Both the position numbers and the translations under genes were made by a program. 64,000 nucleotides of DNA, taken from a virus. Its lineage: Duplodnaviria > Caudoviricetes. Under the pieces are notes generated by a model. It searched no databases. It saw only the letters and a list, made by a program, of their open reading frames with translations, and was not told where the DNA came from. Where the stretch lies: positions 9,015-73,014 of the IMG/VR virus record IMGVR_UViG_3300037846_000091; one strand, given 5' to 3'. Positions 3,379 through 9,972 of this stretch are shown piece after piece (the first letter of the stretch is position 1; every line of letters starts with the position of its first letter).

Positions 3379-3413
3379 GGCCCTGGCTGACGAGAGTTGG
3401 CCAGGGTCTTTTT
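3379..3413 (+). terminator. Rho-independent terminator
   Basis: GGCCCTGGC / GCCAGGGTC stem followed by TTTTT. Confidence 0.7.
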
Positions 3414-3418
3414 CGCGC

Positions 3419-3446
3419 TTGCACCTACCGACATTGTGTGTATAAT
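3419..3446 (+). promoter_or_regulatory. Sigma70-like promoter
   Basis: TTGCAC-16-TATAAT upstream of the RHH gene. Confidence 0.65.
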
Positions 3447-3481
3447 CTTCGTGTGGCTACACTGTCTCACGGAGTAAACCA

Positions 3482-3688
3482 ATGGCACGCAGACCCCGCA
3501 CGCTCAAACCCGTCGAAGGGCCGACCGCAGGCAAGCACTTTCGCCTGGAACCCGAGACACTGGCCCAACTGGACGCGGTCAAAAAACACCTTCAGGACTC
3601 GCAAGACGGAACGACTTTCCCCAAGAAAATAAGCCGTGCTGACGCCATAAGATACTGCGCAAAGGTAACTTACGACCAAATAAAATAA
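3482..3688 (+). CDS. Ribbon-helix-helix (CopG/Arc-like) regulator
   Basis: Beta-strand FRLE, helix ETLAQLDAVKKHL, second helix SRADAIRYC; GGAG RBS. Confidence 0.65.
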   Translation: MARRPRTLKPVEGPTAGKHFRLEPETLAQLDAVKKHLQDSQDGTTFPKKISRADAIRYCAKVTYDQIK

Positions 3689-3693
3689 TTGTG

Positions 3694-3721
3694 TTGACAC
3701 TGTGGACACAGACGCTACAAT
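3694..3721 (+). promoter_or_regulatory. Strong sigma70-like promoter
   Basis: TTGACA-16-TACAAT. Confidence 0.75.
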
Positions 3722-3762
3722 GTGGGTGTAGTGAGAAACGAACCCCTGACCTGGAGTGAACG

Positions 3763-4024
3763 ATGAAGACAACGATAACTGCTCCAACCGGGAAAAGTGG
3801 CCTGGCGGTCGAGCCGTGGTCCAAAGGCGAAGTCTACGCCGTGGCCGCCAACTGGGCGCAGGCTAGCGATCCAGTCCTGAGCTACGGCCAGCGCGGCTGG
3901 GACATCGAGGAGTGCGGCCGTCAGGTGGCCGATTTCCGCCACAGCGCACGGGCGGCCCTGGAATCGGTCATTCGCAGGGCTATCGAGGCGGGAGGCGACA
4001 CGCCCGACGATGACGAGGTCGAGG
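3763..4024 (+). pseudogene. 5' part of a phage gene interrupted by the transposon (3' part at 7877-7938)
   Basis: Removing the element and one TSD copy joins ...DTPDDDEVE to AILDDAEEISDEDQDDD* in frame. Confidence 0.9.
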
Positions 4025-4079
4025 GGCTTTGCAACGCATTGTCGCCGCGCAACGCTTTGCGCCGGGGCGCAACGCATTG
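4025..4079 (+). repeat. Left TIR with subterminal GCAACGC repeats
   Basis: GCAACGC at 4031, 4049 and 4069. Confidence 0.9.
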
Positions 4080-4279
4080 CAGGCCAACCGCCATTCTGGC
4101 AGCCCCGGTTTGTGGCAGAAAGCCCAGAACGGCTATCCTGCCAGACATGCGTACTCCCGTCAAGTCTGCGAACCACGGCTAGGGGTTGACCGATGCGGAC
4201 AACCCTGATAAGCCCCCCGCCCGTCTCGGCTGCGCCTGGAGGCGTGCCGGAAGAGGTAGGCCCCTGGCAGGGAAGCCGG

Positions 4280-5416
4280 ATGGGTAAGCGGGCAAAGAAG
4301 TTGCCAGAGGACGACCAGCCAGCTATTTTGCAGCCTGGCTATGTTGAAGATTTCATCTCGGGAAAGCCGGTTAAATCGACACCCGAAGAGCTTGAGGCTG
4401 TTCAAGTCTTCTCTCGCCGTCTAGTTCAAGAATTCGGCTATCCCAAGAGCGTTATCGTAACTCGACCACAGCACCGCGTGCGTCAACGACCTTCTGGAGC
4501 CAGGAAACGCGGGTATCCAGTTGACATAGCGGTATTCAGTTCTGATCGAAAGCATGAGGACGACCTTTTCATACTGGTAGAATGCAAGCGGGAAACCGAG
4601 AAGGACGGAGAAAAGCAACTCAAACTATACTTATCCATGTCATCTGCCCAGGTTGGCGTCTGGTTCAACGGCAAGAACCATCTGTACTTGCTGAAGAAAT
4701 ACCGAACAGACGGGACGGTTGAATGGCTGCCCCTGCCGACCATTCCGAAATGGGGCCAGTCTCTCTCAGACATAGGTTCGCTTACCAGAGATCAATTAAC
4801 AGTCCCTACCAACCTAAAGGCGACATTCAAAGATATTCGTAATCACCTTGCGGGTAATACTACCGGTATCACAAGAGATCAGTCATTGGCCCAAGAGATC
4901 ATGGCTCTCCTGTTCTGCAAAATATTTGACGAACTAGATACCGGCCCAAAGGACTTGCCAAGATTCCGCGCCCCGATAGACGAGAATCCCAAGGCTGTAG
5001 CAAAGAGAATCAGCGAACTGTTCAAGGCCGTTAAGTTGGAATACGCCGATGTTTTCCAACCGCAAGAGGTCATTTCGCTTGACGAGGATAGTATCCGCTA
5101 TGTTGTCGGAGAGCTACAAAACTACCTGATTACAGGATCTACCCGCGATGCTGTCGGTGAAGCCTTCGAGGTTTTTGTCGGACCGGCTGTCCGGGGCGAA
5201 GAGGGTCAGTTTTTCACGCCACGCAACGTGGTGCAGATGATGGTAAAGCTCATTGATCCTGAGCCTGGAGAGATGCTAATCGACCCGGCTTGCGGTTCTG
5301 GAGGTTTCTTGGTTGTCGCTCTTGAGCATATCTGGCGAGAGCTTGAAAAAGAGCAGAAGAAAAAGGCTTGGACGGCAACAGTTCAACCCGGACGGCACGG
5401 TCACGGATACCCGTAG
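4280..5416 (+). pseudogene. Truncated fused restriction endonuclease / N6-adenine methyltransferase (Type IIG or Type I R-M-like)
   Basis: HsdR_N-like PVDIAVF..VECK..QLKLY; MTase GQFFTPR and motif I DPACGSGGFL; homology stops near 5371 before the NPPF catalytic motif. Confidence 0.85.
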
Positions 5417-6422
5417 CGTGACGTTCACCGAGAAGGTGACGTACAAGCAGGATTGGCCTGCCTACAACCTCGCCCAGAGCATCGAGAAGGACCGCCTACA
5501 AGTCCTGCTGTTCGATCTATGCAAGGGCCTTGTCGAGCCGGAGCGCCCGGTCACGCGAGGGCAGAAGCCGCACACCCTGCGAGACACGATCTTCGCCACC
5601 GTGTTCAAAGTCTACAGCACGTTCTCCAGCCGCCGGTTCACCTGCGATCTGGACGAAGCCCACAGGCGCGGCTACCTGTCCAAGACCATCCCAGGCGTCA
5701 AGACGACGGCCTTCATGGAGAACGCCGACCTTACCCCGGTCCTGAAGGAACTAATCGTCAAGAGCGCTGCACCCCTGAAGGCAGTCGAGACGGCGTTCGC
5801 CATCGACAGCAGCGGCTTTTCGACGTGCAAGTTTGAGCGGTGGTACGACCACAAGTACGGCGTGACGAAGATGCGGCACGTCTGGGTGAAATGCCACATC
5901 GCCTGTGGGGTCAAGACGAACGTGGTAACGGCCGTCCGCATCTTGGACAAGGACGCGGCCGACTGCCCTCAGTTCGTGCCGCTGGTCAAGGATACCCGCA
6001 AGGAGTTCAGCATCAGCGAAGTGAGCGCCGACAAGGCTTACCTGTCGGTCGAGAACTTCGAGGAAGTCGCCGGCATGGGCGGGAACGCCTTTATCCAGTT
6101 CAAGAGCAACAGCACCGGCGGCGCCGGGGGCCTGTTCGAGAAGATGTTCCACTACTTTCAGTTTCAGAAGGAAGAGTACATGGCCCACTACCACAAGCGA
6201 AGCAACGTCGAAAGCACGTTCTCAGCCGTCAAGCGGAAGTTCGGGGACAGCGTCCGCAGCAAGAACGACGTGGCGATGGTCAACGAAGTCCTGTGCAAGC
6301 TGCTCTGTCACAACCTCTGCTGCGTGATTCAAGAGCAATGTGAGTTGGGTATCGAGCCGATCTTCTGGCCAGCGGCCGACGCCAGCAAGCCCGTCATGGT
6401 CCAGGCCATCCAGCACAACTAA
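5371..6422 (+). CDS. DDE transposase (DDE_Tnp_1-like), 5'-truncated; possible restart at GTG 5418
   Basis: FAIDSSG, SADKAY and RSNVESTF provide the D, D, E triad; no native start or RBS, begins inside the MTase fragment. Confidence 0.88.
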
Positions 6423-6434
6423 GGGAGAGCATCC

Positions 6435-6692
6435 ATGCGCGTGTTCTACAAGGCTGAAGTTTCCGTTTACAGGCAGGGGGCGGTTCGCTGGTGCTGTACC
6501 GGTATGGCTCGCTGGTGGGGTGTCCTGGTAGGCTTCGGGGTCCGGGACTGTGCCTCCACGAGCCGGACGGTCAACATCTACCTGAACCGGCCGCAGGCGA
6601 ACGGCAAGACGGCCGTGGAGGTCGTTCCGATTGACTGCTGCCCGTGGTGTGGGGAAGCTGTTGAGGTCTGCCGAAGCAAGGCAACAAGTTGA
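6435..6692 (+). CDS. Cys-rich transposon passenger protein
   Basis: GGGAGAG RBS, WCC and CCPWCG motifs. Confidence 0.65.
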   Translation: MRVFYKAEVSVYRQGAVRWCCTGMARWWGVLVGFGVRDCASTSRTVNIYLNRPQANGKTAVEVVPIDCCPWCGEAVEVCRSKATS

Positions 6693-6882
6693 GTGCGGCG
6701 CTGTCGTTCGGTTATCTTTGCGTGAAACTGAGGTCAGGTTCTTTATCGCAGGGTAACCGATTATGTCTGGCATGAGCGCAAATCAGATTTTTTGCACATG
6801 CGACCGTCTTGTGCGTTATTTCCCGCCCAACGCAGTCTTTACGGGTTGTACATTCTCTGGCCGTTGGCGATGCAGACGCTGT

Positions 6883-7161
6883 TCAGGGCTTGCGGCGGAT
6901 GTTGTTGAAGAGAACCTCGACCAGTTCCTTGCCGCCGGGGCCGCCATGATAGATCGACCGGAGGAATGTGATGGTGCGATCTGCGGCATCTTCCAAGATC
7001 CACTGGCAATCAGCGAAATGGCACTGCGACATTCGGGGCAACGTCCCGCCCCGGTACACAAGACGGCACTGGCGAAACTCGCACGCTTCGTACTCGTTGC
7101 CGTCCACTATCTCAGTACTGTTGTGAAAAACACCCTGCTTATGTGTCGCCATATTTTGCAT
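6883..7161 (-). CDS. Passenger hypothetical protein with short beta-repeat character
   Basis: NEYEACEFRQCRL, SQCHFADCQW periodicity; start 7161 or 7152. Confidence 0.65.
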   Translation of the reverse strand: MQNMATHKQGVFHNSTEIVDGNEYEACEFRQCRLVYRGGTLPRMSQCHFADCQWILEDAADRTITFLRSIYHGGPGGKELVEVLFNNIRRKP

Positions 7162-7191
7162 TCCTAACGCCCGTGCTAATGAGAGGCGCCG

Positions 7192-7461
7192 ATGAAGCAG
7201 AAGGGAAAAGGGCAGAGAATAACATTAGGGACTAAATTGGTCCACGTTTTGTGGTTTGACTCTTCCATCACCCAGGGCGAAACCACGTCCGTTGAGTGTG
7301 CCTCTGGAATTCTGGAAAATGAAAGCGCCGGCGTTCTCGTTCGGGAAGACAAGAAGTGTATCACCATCGCCCTTGATCGGTGTATTGGCACCGGTGGGCT
7401 GCGGTGTACACTTTGCATTCCGAAGGTGAATGTCCGGCGCATCCGCCGTTTTAGGGCGTAG
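7192..7461 (+). CDS. Passenger hypothetical protein
   Basis: GAGAGG RBS, 89-aa ORF. Confidence 0.55.
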   Translation: MKQKGKGQRITLGTKLVHVLWFDSSITQGETTSVECASGILENESAGVLVREDKKCITIALDRCIGTGGLRCTLCIPKVNVRRIRRFRA

Positions 7462-7602
7462 CTACTTCTTCTTCGGCGGCGGCGTCTGGTTCTTCTTGGC
7501 CTGTGCCAAGTCAGACGCGGCAACCGTCCTGTCCTTCGGAGGCGTCTTCTTGTCGCCGAGCAGCTTGCCCGCGTCACTCGCCGGTTTCTTCCCTGTGGTC
7601 AT
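7462..7602 (-). CDS. 46-aa basic microprotein
   Basis: Hand translation MTTGKKPASDAGKLLGDKKTPPKDRTVAASDLAQAKKNQTPPPKKK; GAAGGAG RBS on minus strand. Confidence 0.65.
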   Translation of the reverse strand: MTTGKKPASDAGKLLGDKKTPPKDRTVAASDLAQAKKNQTPPPKKK

Positions 7603-7812
7603 GGGACACTCCTTCAGAATGGTAACGCTCGCCCACCACGCGCCGTGGTAGGGGACTGCGAAGCAGGCGAGCGTGTTTTCAGCTGGAATTTGCCTACCAC
7701 GGCAATAGGAATTCTAAACCGGGCGGTATGGGGATGTCAAGGGAATTCATATACTGCTGACCAGAAGTGTTCCGAGGTTCCCATGTATACGGTCGTCCTG
7801 TCCCATGCGGCC

Positions 7813-7876
7813 TTGCAACGCATTGATGTAACTTGCAACGCATTAAGTGGTTTATGGCTCAATGCGTTGCAAAGCC
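7813..7876 (-). repeat. Right TIR with subterminal TTGCAACGCATT repeats
   Basis: TTGCAACGCATT at 7813 and 7833 (20-bp period); TIR 7860-7876. Confidence 0.9.
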
Positions 7877-7938
7877 AGGTCGAGGCGATCCTAGACGACG
7901 CGGAGGAGATCAGCGATGAGGATCAAGACGATGATTGA
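7877..7938 (+). pseudogene. 3' part of the gene interrupted at 4024
   Basis: In-frame acidic tail after the TSD, TGA 7936-7938. Confidence 0.85.
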
Positions 7939-8155
7939 CCAACACTACCCGCCGCCCTGCGTCCACACGGAAGGCATCGGTCTGTGCGCCGCCTGCCAGG
8001 AGGCTTTCGGCGAAGATCCGCAAGCCTACTGTGAGTACGGCGACCATCCGGAAGGAATCGCCAACTTCCGCCGCGATCAGGAGATGATCGACGCGGACAT
8101 GAGAGCGCGGGACACGCAGCCTCCCAGCGTACCCGACCCAAGCATACCGTTCTAA
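7931..8155 (+). CDS. Hypothetical protein
   Basis: ATGATTGA overlap with the interrupted gene; C-x-H..CAAC. Confidence 0.6.
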   Translation: MIDQHYPPPCVHTEGIGLCAACQEAFGEDPQAYCEYGDHPEGIANFRRDQEMIDADMRARDTQPPSVPDPSIPF

Positions 8156-8203
8156 CGAGACACCCCAACGCGACCCGGCCGCTTGCCGGGGAGGAGTAGG
8201 ACC

Positions 8204-8407
8204 ATGACAAGCTGCAAGTGGACAACCGTCAAAGAGGTCGCTTACGACGGCAAGTACGACGGCTGCAACACAGACCGCCGGGCCTGCGGCGGTATCGTGC
8301 TGATTCAGGAACGCCGCAAGGGCGGCAAGGTCGAACGCCGGGCCGTCACGAGCAACGGCCCGTTTCACTTCGTGACTCCCCTGGAGCCCGCTTCGCTTGT
8401 CCGCTGA
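8204..8407 (+). CDS. Hypothetical protein
   Basis: GAGGAG RBS, ATG 8204. Confidence 0.6.
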   Translation: MTSCKWTTVKEVAYDGKYDGCNTDRRACGGIVLIQERRKGGKVERRAVTSNGPFHFVTPLEPASLVR

Positions 8408-8412
8408 ACCTG

Positions 8413-8497
8413 GCCCGGGCGTGGCCGAATAGAAGCGAGAGCGTGATGGTATTGGTAGCCGCGCTTCGCAGCATCTCCCGCCCGGGTCTTTTTCTTT
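8413..8497 (+). terminator. Long-stem terminator
   Basis: GCCCGGGCG / CGCCCGGGT with inner GAAGCG / CGCTTC, followed by TTTTTCTTT. Confidence 0.5.
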
Positions 8498-8567
8498 GAA
8501 CGCCAATCCCGCAAAACGAACGCAAAAAACGCTGGCGAACGCAGACCCCTGTCAAGTCCCGTTCCTC

Positions 8568-8687: not shown

Positions 8688-8832
8688 CTCTGGCCTGTTG
8701 AGCCTCCAAAGGGTGACGTTCTTCCAAATGCCAAAGCCGCAGTAACTTGCGGCGGCCCGCTCCAAAGCGGCGTGGCGTCCTTTCCAGACTTGTGCGTTCG
8801 TTTTAACGCCAAACATGCGAAATGAGGACGAC

Positions 8833-9972
8833 ATGCCGCGTACCCCACGGTTTCCAAAGTATCCCGCTCGCGCCCATCCCAACGGACAAGCGAGAATAAG
8901 CGTAGCCAAGGTGCAAATATACTTGGGGGCCTTCGGCAGCGCCGAGTCCTGGCGCGAGTACAACCGCCTTCTCGCCGAGTGGACCGCCGCCCGCGCAGGC
9001 GAGCCCCTGCCCGCAGCGCCTGCCGGCAAGCTGACGGTCGCGGTCCTGGTCGTGCTGTTCCTGCACGCCGCCGAGAAGGATCGCACGGACCCCGAGTTCA
9101 GGGAGTATCGCATCACGTGCGAAACGCTGGTGCAACTCTACGGCGACCGCCCGGCTGTGGAGTTCGGCCCGATCGCGCTGCGTGCGGTCAGGCAAGCGTG
9201 GGTCGATGCCGGGTGCTGCCGAAGGACGTGCAACCAGCGTGCTGGCAGGGTCAAGACGATGCTCAAGTGGGCCGTCGCGGAGGAGCTTGTACCCGCCAGC
9301 GTCCACGAGGCCCTGCTGCGTGTGCCTGGCTTGCAAGCTGGCCGCACGTCGGCTCCAGACCGGCCGAAGGTGTTGCCGGTGTCGCCAGAGGTCGTGGAGC
9401 GCACGCTGCCCTGGCTGTCGCCGGTGCTTCAGGCGATGGTCCGCGTGCAGCAGTACACCGGAATGCGTCCGGGGGAAGTGTGCATCATGCGGCCGACGGA
9501 CCTGGATCGATCCTCGCTAGCCATCGATGGGGTGCCGATATGGGTTTTTAGGCCATCGATGCACAAGGGGCTGTGGCGGGGCAAGTCGAAAGCCGTGGTG
9601 ATCGGCCCCAAAGCCCAGGCCGTGCTGCTGCCGTTCCTGGACCGCGCCCCCGACGCCTATCTCTTCACGCCGGCCGAATCGCGCGGAGGTGTCAGGCCGC
9701 CCGGCAGTAAGCGTGCGCCGGGGGCTCGCTGGATGAACTACGCCTACGCCAACGCAATCCATTGGGCCATTGACCGCGCCAACCGGCACGGTGAGGAGAT
9801 CCCGCATTGGACTCCCCACCAGGTGCGCCACCAGGTCGCAACCGAGGTCAGGGCGCAGTACGGGCTGGAGGCGAGCCGGAACGTCCTTGGCCATTCCGAC
9901 CCCGGCATTACACTTCTCTACGCCGAACGCGACCTGCAAGCGGCTGCGGCCATCGTGGCGAAGTTGGGGTGA
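8833..9972 (+). CDS. int: Tyrosine recombinase / phage integrase
   Basis: TGMRPGEV, PHQVRH, GHS and LLYAE catalytic motifs; GAGGA RBS before ATG 8833 (alternative start 8815). Confidence 0.95.
   Translation: MPRTPRFPKYPARAHPNGQARISVAKVQIYLGAFGSAESWREYNRLLAEWTAARAGEPLPAAPAGKLTVAVLVVLFLHAAEKDRTDPEFREYRITCETLVQLYGDRPAVEFGPIALRAVRQAWVDAGCCRRTCNQRAGRVKTMLKWAVAEELVPASVHEALLRVPGLQAGRTSAPDRPKVLPVSPEVVERTLPWLSPVLQAMVRVQQYTGMRPGEVCIMRPTDLDRSSLAIDGVPIWVFRPSMHKGLWRGKSKAVVIGPKAQAVLLPFLDRAPDAYLFTPAESRGGVRPPGSKRAPGARWMNYAYANAIHWAIDRANRHGEEIPHWTPHQVRHQVATEVRAQYGLEASRNVLGHSDPGITLLYAERDLQAAAAIVAKLG

Follow-up and report, generated by a model that had tools for sequence, protein, structure and literature searches.

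A probably disabled, cargo-carrying relative of the IS903 group in a gene of a temperate soil phage

In ISfinder usage, insertion sequences that carry passenger genes are termed transporter IS (tIS); to our knowledge, they are exceptions within the known IS families. Members of the IS903 group measure about 1.05 kb and encode a single transposase of about 310–320 aa. The IS903B reference (L172, 1401–2457), a one-gene element of 1,057 bp without passengers, has GGCTTTGTTGAATAAATC ends and a 9-bp target-site duplication (TSD). Tn7-like transposons are much larger, depend on a multi-protein machinery (TnsA, TnsB, TnsC and a targeting protein) and generate 5-bp duplications. They possess several transposase-binding repeats at asymmetric ends and are reported to transport variable, defence-rich cargo (Benler et al. 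2021, PMC8649781).

Here we analyse a 64,000-nt stretch (the window) of the Caudoviricetes record IMGVR_UViG_3300037846_000091, which contains a transposable element of 3,852 bp (4025–7876). Its GGCTTTG termini, terminal inverted repeats (TIRs) of about 17–18 bp and 9-bp duplication resemble those of IS903 and IS903B, but its length does not fit the IS903 group. As in tIS, IS-type ends enclose a single transposase gene and genes unrelated to transposition. The family around the element differs from tIS in that all 48 delimited members carry extra DNA. Like Tn7-like transposons, the family combines defence-rich, variable cargo with several repeats at asymmetric ends; in contrast to them, it uses one DDE_Tnp_1 protein and generates duplications of 9–10 bp. 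We are quite confident that the locus is best read as a genuine, recent insertion of a cargo-carrying family member that has since been disabled by an internal deletion.

A transposed unit within a phage gene

The element was transposed as a unit bounded by cognate ends and interrupts a phage gene (Table 1). As the initial annotation had stated, the TIRs agree in 17 of 17 positions and the TSD is exact, a 9-bp match at these fixed positions having a chance probability of about 4e-6. Three TIR matches with up to three mismatches were found in the window versus 0.21 expected, and none of 100 shuffles reached three. The window contains 34 GCAACGC heptamers, six of which fall within the two element ends of about 60 bp each. 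The subterminal GCAACGC repeats reported earlier are indeed present at both ends, with the correction that the right-end copies lie on the plus strand and are inverted with respect to the terminal repeat. The outer right core copy extends to a near-complete third TIR copy (7809–7825, one mismatch) and so makes up, together with the right end, a hairpin-like unit of 68 bp. The same subterminal offsets recur in relatives of the element, and the core copies are presumed to be transposase-binding sites. Only one copy of the element occurs in the virus record (73,014 bp; CheckV: 100% complete).

Table 1 Features of the element and of the interrupted phage gene (window coordinates)
Feature	Position	Strand	Remarks
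Interrupted phage gene, 5′ part, 87 codons	3763–4024	+	From ORF list; its final nine bases form the left TSD copy
Left TSD copy, AGGTCGAGG	4016–4024		Exact match to right copy
Left TIR, GGCTTTGCAACGCATTG	4025–4041	+	17/17 versus right end
Left subterminal core copies, direct	4048–4056 (+24, 2 mismatches); 4068–4076 (+44, 1 mismatch)	+
Truncated methyltransferase ORF, MAD2-like	4193–5416	+	HSDR_N_2 and partial N6_Mtase
Proposed internal deletion junction	5366–5373		Methylase homology ends; transposase homology begins at residue 67 of full-length relatives, +1 frame
Transposase remnant, 349 codons, DDE_Tnp_1	5373–6422	+	Catalytic D, D, E kept
85-aa ORF	6435–6692	+	No detectable relatives; coding status uncertain
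92-aa conserved small protein, phrog_26297	6883–7161	-	Sole right-arm passenger with demonstrable relatives
89-aa ORF	7192–7461	+	Look-alikes only hypothetical, mostly viral, protein clusters; lead only
Right subterminal core copies	7814–7822 (-62); 7834–7842 (-42)	+	Inverted versus right TIR
Right TIR, reverse complement of GGCTTTGCAACGCATTG	7860–7876	-	17/17
Right TSD copy, AGGTCGAGG	7877–7885		Exact match to left copy
Interrupted phage gene, 3′ part, 17 codons and stop	7886–7938	+

The split gene is small and dispensable, and the small acidic protein that it encodes has homologues in the phages L103 and L104. As proposed in the initial annotation, excision restores one ORF: joining the two gene parts gave 104 aa reading ...DDDEVEAILDDAEEISDEDQDDD, which aligned over its full length, join included, with the uninterrupted gene of the phage contig L103 (58% identity, E 1e-41); L104 aligned as well. 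The contiguous sequence anticipated for an uninterrupted relative was found in the L103 homologue, where ...DDEVDGIVDDATEISDE... spans the insertion point. Since L103 and L104 share only this gene with the window phage, and no synteny was detected beyond it, they show the uninterrupted gene and not a syntenic empty site. With the query used, the gene was absent from 252 Gemmataceae-family genomes. Among the assembled contigs, from which rare variants drop out so that an empty allele could be missed, none joins 4024 to 7886. In two soil samples, the contigs of high depth are those that carry the insertion. The phage, which encodes an integrase at 8815–9972, is a temperate soil phage whose host probably belongs to the Planctomycetota.

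We considered whether the element or its internal junction could be a chimeric metagenome join. The sequence stems from a metagenome assembly; the community contains many copies of the transposase family, and in both runs the contigs end near 6287, within conserved transposase sequence. However, chimeric joins do not yield an exact TSD, perfect TIRs and in-frame ORF restoration. Furthermore, contigs of 50 kb obtained in two runs include the left and fusion junctions and agree with 3400–6287 with 0 differences, although the two runs may be source samples of the virus record, so that this check is not fully independent; the right junction lies inside a 2,424-nt contig of X2. We give such an artefact hardly any credence.

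Truncated methyltransferase and transposase genes

The first ORF of the element shares with MAD2 of the methylation-associated defence system (NCBIfam NF047738; PADLOC mad2) an HSDR_N-type N-terminal domain and motif I (DPACGSG, residue 364), but represents its first 55% only and lacks the catalytic motif IV. It aligned to positions 4–365 of 654 (E 3e-63) and scored 214 bits, below the curated cut-off of 720, while coverage of the N6_Mtase profile was confined to positions 2–79 of 311. Type I and type II methylase models matched as well as or better than MAD2, which leaves the system type of the ancestor uncertain, and no other MADS genes were found inside the element. Methylase homology accounts for 391 residues of a roughly 620-aa protein and ends near nt 5365; the last 17 codons of the ORF are out-of-frame transposase DNA. 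The stump stops 27 residues past motif I, and no [NDS]PP[YFW] (NPPF) motif occurs anywhere in the ORF; in the full-length relatives (621–671 aa), NPPF is located 104 residues past motif I in six cases out of six. What had initially been annotated as an R-M gene is thus predicted to be a catalytically dead N-terminal stump.

The second ORF (5313/5373–6422) matched Pfam DDE_Tnp_1 (PF01609, E 5e-23), and its closest relatives showed 74–81% identity over 90–94% of the ORF. Alignment of the relatives (A1) revealed that the catalytic residues D211, D286 and E346 are invariant, window copy included, and the Y-x2-R-x3-E-x6-K signature was found with its K column likewise invariant. IS903 shares the DDE_Tnp_1 domain, a WPxYN motif near the N-terminus and the Y-R-E-K signature. 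The IS903B transposase aligned to residues 72–291 of the relative P0004 with 25% identity over 228 residues (E 4e-8). The best NCBIfam match was the IS5-family model NF033579, whose cut-off of 140 bits was reached neither by the window protein (105 bits) nor by P0004 (101 bits), and of which only the catalytic half was matched. Sequence comparison makes this SWIM-bearing type of transposase a distant relative of the IS903 group in the IS5 family. The initial annotation could assign no named IS family; GGCTTTG ends, the 9-bp TSD and the identity to IS903B now permit this more precise, though sub-threshold, placement. The insertion was made by DDE chemistry with 9-bp staggered target cuts, and the label "IS4-type" given to it earlier was roughly right, since DDE_Tnp_1 covers both IS4 and IS5, IS5/IS903 being the closer match.

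The transposases of the relatives comprise 409–425 aa and bear a SWIM zinc finger (CxCxnCxH) at residues 36–65, the Cys and His of which are at least 90% conserved. The window protein aligned to residues 67–408 of P0004 (78% identity) and is without residues 1–66, which include the SWIM finger and the native start; no SWIM-coding sequence occurs elsewhere in the window. We read the missing finger as a secondary loss by deletion. An intact progenitor with full methylase, full transposase and the same ends was found in none of the metagenome, viral and Gemmataceae searches, and scanning the metagenome for the methylase progenitor returned relatives of up to 74% identity, none of them beside a SWIM-DDE gene or within GGCTTTG ends. 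The deletion was therefore deduced from the end-points of homology and not from a before-and-after pair. The transposase of Limnoglobus roseus (L040), which is N-terminally truncated from residue 57, has no recognisable ends and was dismissed as a relic instead of a headless form. As the deletion cut away the 3′ 40% of the methylase gene and 66 transposase codons, the window copy is predicted to encode neither an active methylase nor a full-length transposase.

If the element were an intact, autonomous transposon with one transposase, bringing a functional R-M or defence gene to the phage, this would fit the perfect ends and TSD, the intact DDE triad and the two open frames; complete R-M-type genes do occur elsewhere in the family, as in L096. 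This reading, essentially that of the initial annotation, is contradicted already for the methylase, which ends after motif I without NPPF and scores far below the MAD2 cut-off; the transposase lacks its N-terminal residues with the SWIM finger and native start, and the two fragments abut in different frames. We regard it as very improbable. The family indeed carries defence-type cargo around a single transposase gene, whereas in the window copy both genes are truncated.

N-terminally truncated transposases act as transposition inhibitors in Tn5, and the stump and headless transposase might likewise form a selected functional unit, either as a stop-restart-coupled inhibitor or as a programmed-frameshift fusion. 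Both reading frames are uninterrupted, for 391 and 349 codons, and the remnant spans the whole IS903-homologous region. It could start at TTG 5313 or at GTG 5418, the latter following the methylase-frame stop (TAG 5414–5416) at a distance of 1 nt. However, a recent deletion would equally leave the frames open, and the arrangement was found in none of the 48 delimited relatives. A fusion by programmed frameshifting was rejected: the transposase frame is +1 and not -1, no canonical slippery heptamer is present at 5357–5366, and a methylase domain occurs in 0 of 14 longer relatives (612–784 aa), leaving no fused homologues. Selection for such a unit appears improbable. As regards truncation by deletion, the remnant keeps all parts of an IS903-type enzyme (WPxYN, DDE) and both fragment ORFs are open, so that the loss of activity and autonomy is presumed. 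The window copy is probably a stranded relic and not a working defence shuttle.

Of six small ORFs in the right arm, five had no match in Pfam, PHROGs or PADLOC, and the protein-atlas look-alikes of right-arm ORFs are unnamed clusters. The gene content proposed initially (one DDE transposase, an R-M gene and four small passengers) had to be revised: the DDE transposase was recovered as a truncated second ORF, the first ORF is a methylase fragment, and only one small passenger has relatives.

A family of elements with SWIM-bearing transposases and extra DNA

The initial annotation had expected homologous transposases to be flanked by the same kind of TIR. Indeed, at 48 loci of relatives GGCTTTG...CAAAGCC ends with an exact TSD of 9–10 bp enclose the transposase gene. 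The true ends, 0.6–3.7 kb from this gene, were located through paired copies; looking for simple exact inverted repeats no more than 500 bp from the gene yielded nothing convincing. The delimited relatives measure 2,474–5,959 bp (median 3,682), with left arms of at least 634 bp and 1–4.5 kb of passenger DNA between the ends; in the window element, transposase homology is flanked by 1,348 bp on its left and 1,454 bp on its right. Extra DNA was present in 48 of 48 cases, and a cargo-free element of about 1.4 kb was not seen. Thus, unlike IS903B with its one gene and no passengers, family elements (2.5–6 kb) always hold additional DNA. Full-length family transposases of about 410 aa consist of an N-terminal SWIM zinc finger, which IS903 transposase lacks, followed by an IS903-like core.

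The ends also differ from those of IS903: each consists of the terminal site and two further core copies at fixed offsets (+24, +44, -62 and -42) in an asymmetric layout. At these offsets, core repeats were counted 43 times forward and 0 times reverse at left ends, and 41 times forward and 5 times reverse at right ends, compared with 25 in 172 kb of interior sequence. The window element exhibits the family's end layout (GGCTTTG, all four offsets, 9–10-bp TSD) but not the SWIM finger. The repeats and SWIM are presumed to function in binding. Nine viral contigs with exact TIR matches (L005–L013) were discarded as chance 17-mers without subterminal repeats or other similarity. The exact 17-mer was also found in 5 of 252 Gemmataceae-family genomes, one of which (G159) holds four copies near contig ends; these elements were rejected as donors, as only 67–80% transposase match and about 60 bp at the ends were shared.

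Matches of the family cargo in Pfam and PADLOC include N6_Mtase (six ORFs), type IIG, HSDR_N, GmrSD_N, HipA_C, M78, SieB and DUF4145, and about a quarter of the passenger genes are recognisably R-M or defence genes. One phage-borne element (L096) encodes an 870-aa N6_Mtase/Eco57I protein and thus complete R-M-type cargo. In the literature searched, IS5/IS903-like elements with both SWIM and cargo were nowhere described, and the large family is apparently new to the literature. Taken as a whole, we propose only tentatively that the window element represents a decayed copy from a very large, uncatalogued family with a single SWIM-bearing, IS903-like transposase, three-site asymmetric ends and obligatory cargo. 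Such a family may act as a one-protein shuttle of R-M and defence genes across Planctomycetota, Acidobacteriota, Alphaproteobacteria and their phages, with SWIM reading the subterminal sites and phages acquiring and spreading the shuttles.

Proposed history and implications

In our reading, a DDE transposase inserted the element as a unit into the phage gene with a 9-bp stagger, and an internal deletion removed the 3′ 40% of the methylase gene, anything behind it and the first 66 transposase codons. The order of these events is deduced. Somewhat preferred is the passage of an intact copy from the host chromosome into the prophage, with the deletion occurring later in the phage lineage. Less likely, an already deleted copy might have been mobilised in trans by a full-length copy, and it is doubtful that the SWIM-less protein was itself active enough to move the element.

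For the phage the event was small: the insertion disrupted a dispensable gene and added about 3.9 kb of DNA, most of it dead. Being a natural SWIM-deletion allele with intact ends, the window copy offers a convenient substrate for the question of whether SWIM is required. End sites at fixed offsets but with variable sequence, together with a family-specific SWIM, yield a model, open to direct testing, of the way in which end recognition diversifies. The family itself, with its single protein much simpler than Tn7-like systems, would represent a simple and abundant route by which defence genes travel between chromosomes and phages.

Insertion of the element into a phage gene

The source virus record comprises 73,014 bp (100% complete by CheckV), with the window corresponding to its bases 9015–73014. 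A search for the 17-mer GGCTTTGCAACGCATTG at ≤3 mismatches returned three matches in the window against 0.21 expected. Two are the termini of the element, which pair as inverted repeats over 17/17 positions; the third (7809–7825, one mismatch) faces the right end and represents the –62 site of the end layout of the family described below. Both termini are directly abutted by the duplication AGGTCGAGG, and 6 of the 34 GCAACGC heptamers in the window fall in the two ends, confirming the terminal repeats, target-site duplication and subterminal repeats reported in the initial annotation. The element has a copy number of one in the phage and was inserted as one unit with a 9-bp duplication.

It had also been proposed that removal of the element restores a single ORF. 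Indeed, joining 3763–4024 to 7886–7938 gives a 104-aa ORF, which aligned over its full length and across the join (...DDDEVDGIVDDATEISDE...) with an ORF that another phage contig has without interruption (L103; 58% identity, E 1e-41). An ORF of a further phage (L104) aligned likewise. Since both phages have only this gene in common with the window phage, what they document is the gene in its uninterrupted form rather than an empty site in a syntenic context. The insertion in the window is real and recent. The product of the split gene is small and has a very acidic tail (…SDEDQDDD). The gene is located ca. 900 bp upstream of the integrase and is present in two otherwise unrelated phage contigs; on these grounds it is probably of the moron-like accessory type. 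The contigs carrying the insertion are the high-depth ones (30×, 18×), and loss of the gene is therefore tolerated.

Coordinates of the window features and of the left-end ORF found in related elements
Feature	Position	Strand	Description
Target duplication	4016–4024 and 7877–7885		AGGTCGAGG, directly outside each end
Left terminal repeat	4025–4041		17-mer GGCTTTGCAACGCATTG
Methylase fragment ORF	4193–5416		HSDR_N_2 and positions 2–79 of the 311-position N6_Mtase profile
Transposase ORF	5313–6422		DDE_Tnp_1
92-aa ORF	6883–7161	–	phrog_26297 and four proteins at 55–65% identity
Right terminal repeat	7860–7876		exact reverse complement of GGCTTTGCAACGCATTG
Phage integrase	8815–9972		
Conserved left-end ORF	L050:2984–3490, L056:2906–3508, L062:2966–3541, L078:2921–3523, L085:3035–3481, L086:3074–3589, L093:3053–3553		

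An internal deletion fused two gene fragments

The initial annotation had listed the transposase ahead of the restriction–modification (R-M) gene; the methylase fragment is in fact the first ORF and the DDE transposase the second. In NCBIfam, the methylase fragment matched positions 4–365 of the 654-position model of the defence methylase MAD2 (214 bits vs. a cut-off of 720), and type I and type II methylase models of PADLOC matched the same N-terminal half. Full-length relatives from metagenomes (n = 6) measure 621–671 aa and bear NPPF 104 residues past motif I in 6/6 cases. The window ORF has motif I at residue 364, loses methylase homology at residue 391 and lacks motif IV; a search for the 3′ part elsewhere in the window did not find it. 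By its sequence, the fragment cannot possess methylase activity.

Relatives of the transposase are mostly 409–425 aa long, with a SWIM zinc finger at residues 36–65. The window transposase covers residues 67–408 of the full-length relative P0004 (78% identity, alignment from nt 5373) and retains the catalytic D, D and E, while no SWIM-coding sequence was found elsewhere in the window. The end of methylase homology is separated from the start of transposase homology by only ~8 nt (5366–5373), and the frames differ. In two runs of soil metagenomes, both of which may be source samples, 50-kb contigs exhibited no differences over 3400–6287, so that the junction is not confined to a single assembly. 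These findings show that an internal deletion fused two gene fragments in the window copy. It is unlikely that the methylase–transposase fusion acts as a functional unit: the frame relation is +1 without a slippery site, and a methylase domain was present in 0/14 longer homologues. The contigs of both runs (X1, X2) break near 6287, where the transposase is most strongly conserved, and X1 lacked substantial coverage of 6320–8500 though its phage contig had a depth of ~30. The pattern resembles an assembly break induced by repeats and does not constitute evidence for a variant.

Given the near-invariance of the SWIM finger across the family and the missing native start, the window copy has likely lost autonomy. 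The view of a dead transposase is tempered by IS903, whose transposase lacks a SWIM finger and whose entire homologous region is covered by the window remnant. A second, independent N-terminally truncated relic resides on the Limnoglobus roseus chromosome (L040, 4001–5050), where the family transposase starts only at residue 57 and no GGCTTTG end is recognisable upstream.

As for the order of events, we favour a scenario in which an intact copy would have inserted during lysogeny (the phage carries an integrase) and would then have undergone deletion in the phage lineage. It is also possible that an already deleted copy was mobilised in trans, given that related elements with the same terminus occur in the same community (loose ends at 4024 and 4055) and that Gemmataceae genomes are rich in family copies, with at least seven in genome G159. 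The transposase of IS903 acts strongly in cis, which counts against such mobilisation. In G159, contigs C67, C109, C75 and C182 contain four exact copies of the window 17-bp terminus, each ~124 bp from a contig end, which points to an element present in several copies whose termini are identical but whose interior differs (78–86% identity over ~60 bp). Furthermore, a low-depth X2 contig (depth 2) with several mismatches joins window 7876 to 4061: sequence resembling the right end is followed by 13 unrelated bases (TCGCGAAGGGGGT) and then by the left-end interior from 4061. It probably derives from related copies that lie next to or within one another elsewhere in the community rather than from the window phage.

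Among the right-arm ORFs, only the 92-aa ORF had demonstrable relatives. Its protein-atlas model is confident (pLDDT 0.85), and the nearest annotated structural neighbours, pentapeptide-repeat or β-helix proteins (TM 0.5–0.6), may serve as a lead.

End architecture and cargo of the family

Paired copies within single genomes (L050/L052; L081/L082) revealed repeated units of 2.5 and 3.8 kb with ends GGCTTTGC..., flanked by 9–10-bp duplications. All fetched relatives were searched for GGC[TC]TTG...CAA[AG]GCC with an exact 9–10-bp flanking repeat in the range of 0.9–9 kb. This delimited 48 elements of 2,474–5,959 bp (median 3,682), each with a transposase gene inside, a left arm of at least 634 bp and a right arm of 27–2,878 bp; a cargo-free element of ~1.4 kb was not among them. 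Species-representative genomes yielded roughly 470 hits. Homologous transposases are thus flanked by the matching type of terminal repeat, as the initial annotation had anticipated. The 9-nt core of the repeat varies in sequence by lineage and recurs at fixed offsets: directly at +24 and +44 in the left end, and at –62 and –42 in the right end on the same strand, hence inverted relative to the right terminus. Of the core copies in the left ends, 43 were forward and none reverse; the right ends had 41 forward and 5 reverse copies, compared with 25 copies in 172 kb of interior. The window element displays exactly this layout, and its ends are cognate to its transposase.

In a set of 47 delimited relatives, the 6 nt on either side of the duplication tend to complement each other (e.g., CCCTCC-N9-GGAGGG), with a mean of 2.5/6 matches vs. 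1.6 in controls. Five sites (L046, L047, L048, L059, L071) reached ≥5/6 vs. 0.6% expected (p ~1e-5), which suggests that some lineages prefer dyad-symmetric targets; the target of the window element (4010–4024, 7886–7891) is not symmetric (2/6). L050 and L052, two identical 2,474-bp copies on one contig, each occupy the same palindromic 10-bp GGGGTACCCC, indicating either strong target specificity or part of an inverted repeat. Seven Acidobacteriota-type elements share a conserved ORF of ~150–200 aa just inside the left end, oriented as the transposase, with no Pfam family among those listed and no counterpart in the window element. This ORF may have an accessory role within the sub-lineage.

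A scan of 108 non-transposase ORFs against Pfam and PADLOC yielded, among others, N6_Mtase (6 ORFs), Eco57I and type IIG models, HSDR_N, GmrSD_N, D12 methylase, HipA_C, M78/IrrE with an HTH domain, protein kinase, SieB, DUF4145, mad2 and mad5. By a rough estimate based on these counts, a gene recognisable as R-M or defence-type is present in about a quarter of the elements; the majority of the cargo has no annotation, and none is common to the window and any sampled relative. Viral contigs harbour three of the delimited elements (L096, L097, L100), with L096 encoding an 870-aa N6_Mtase/Eco57I protein. The notion of a carrier of defence cargo thus holds for the family but not for the window copy, in which both genes are truncated.

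Relationship to the IS903 group

The best NCBIfam model of the transposase was of the IS5 family (101–105 bits vs. a cut-off of 140, catalytic half only). The annotated IS903B reference (L172) is 1,057 bp long with GGCTTTGTTGAATAAATC ends and a 9-bp duplication, and its transposase (322 aa) aligned with residues 72–291 of P0004 (25% identity, E 4e-8); the alignment takes in the WPxYN motif. Because of this model match and the IS903B comparison, the family is placed as distantly related to the IS903 group and enlarged in comparison. Terminus and stagger are those of that group; the SWIM finger, multi-site ends and obligatory cargo are additions. ISfinder aside, the literature searched contained no account of IS5/IS903-like elements that combine a SWIM finger with cargo. 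What is new here is the fixed-offset end architecture over 48 elements, the direct comparison with IS903B, and the internal deletion of the window copy, with both genes cut at one junction. The window copy is degenerate, and the IS903-type variant to which it belongs is apparently undescribed.
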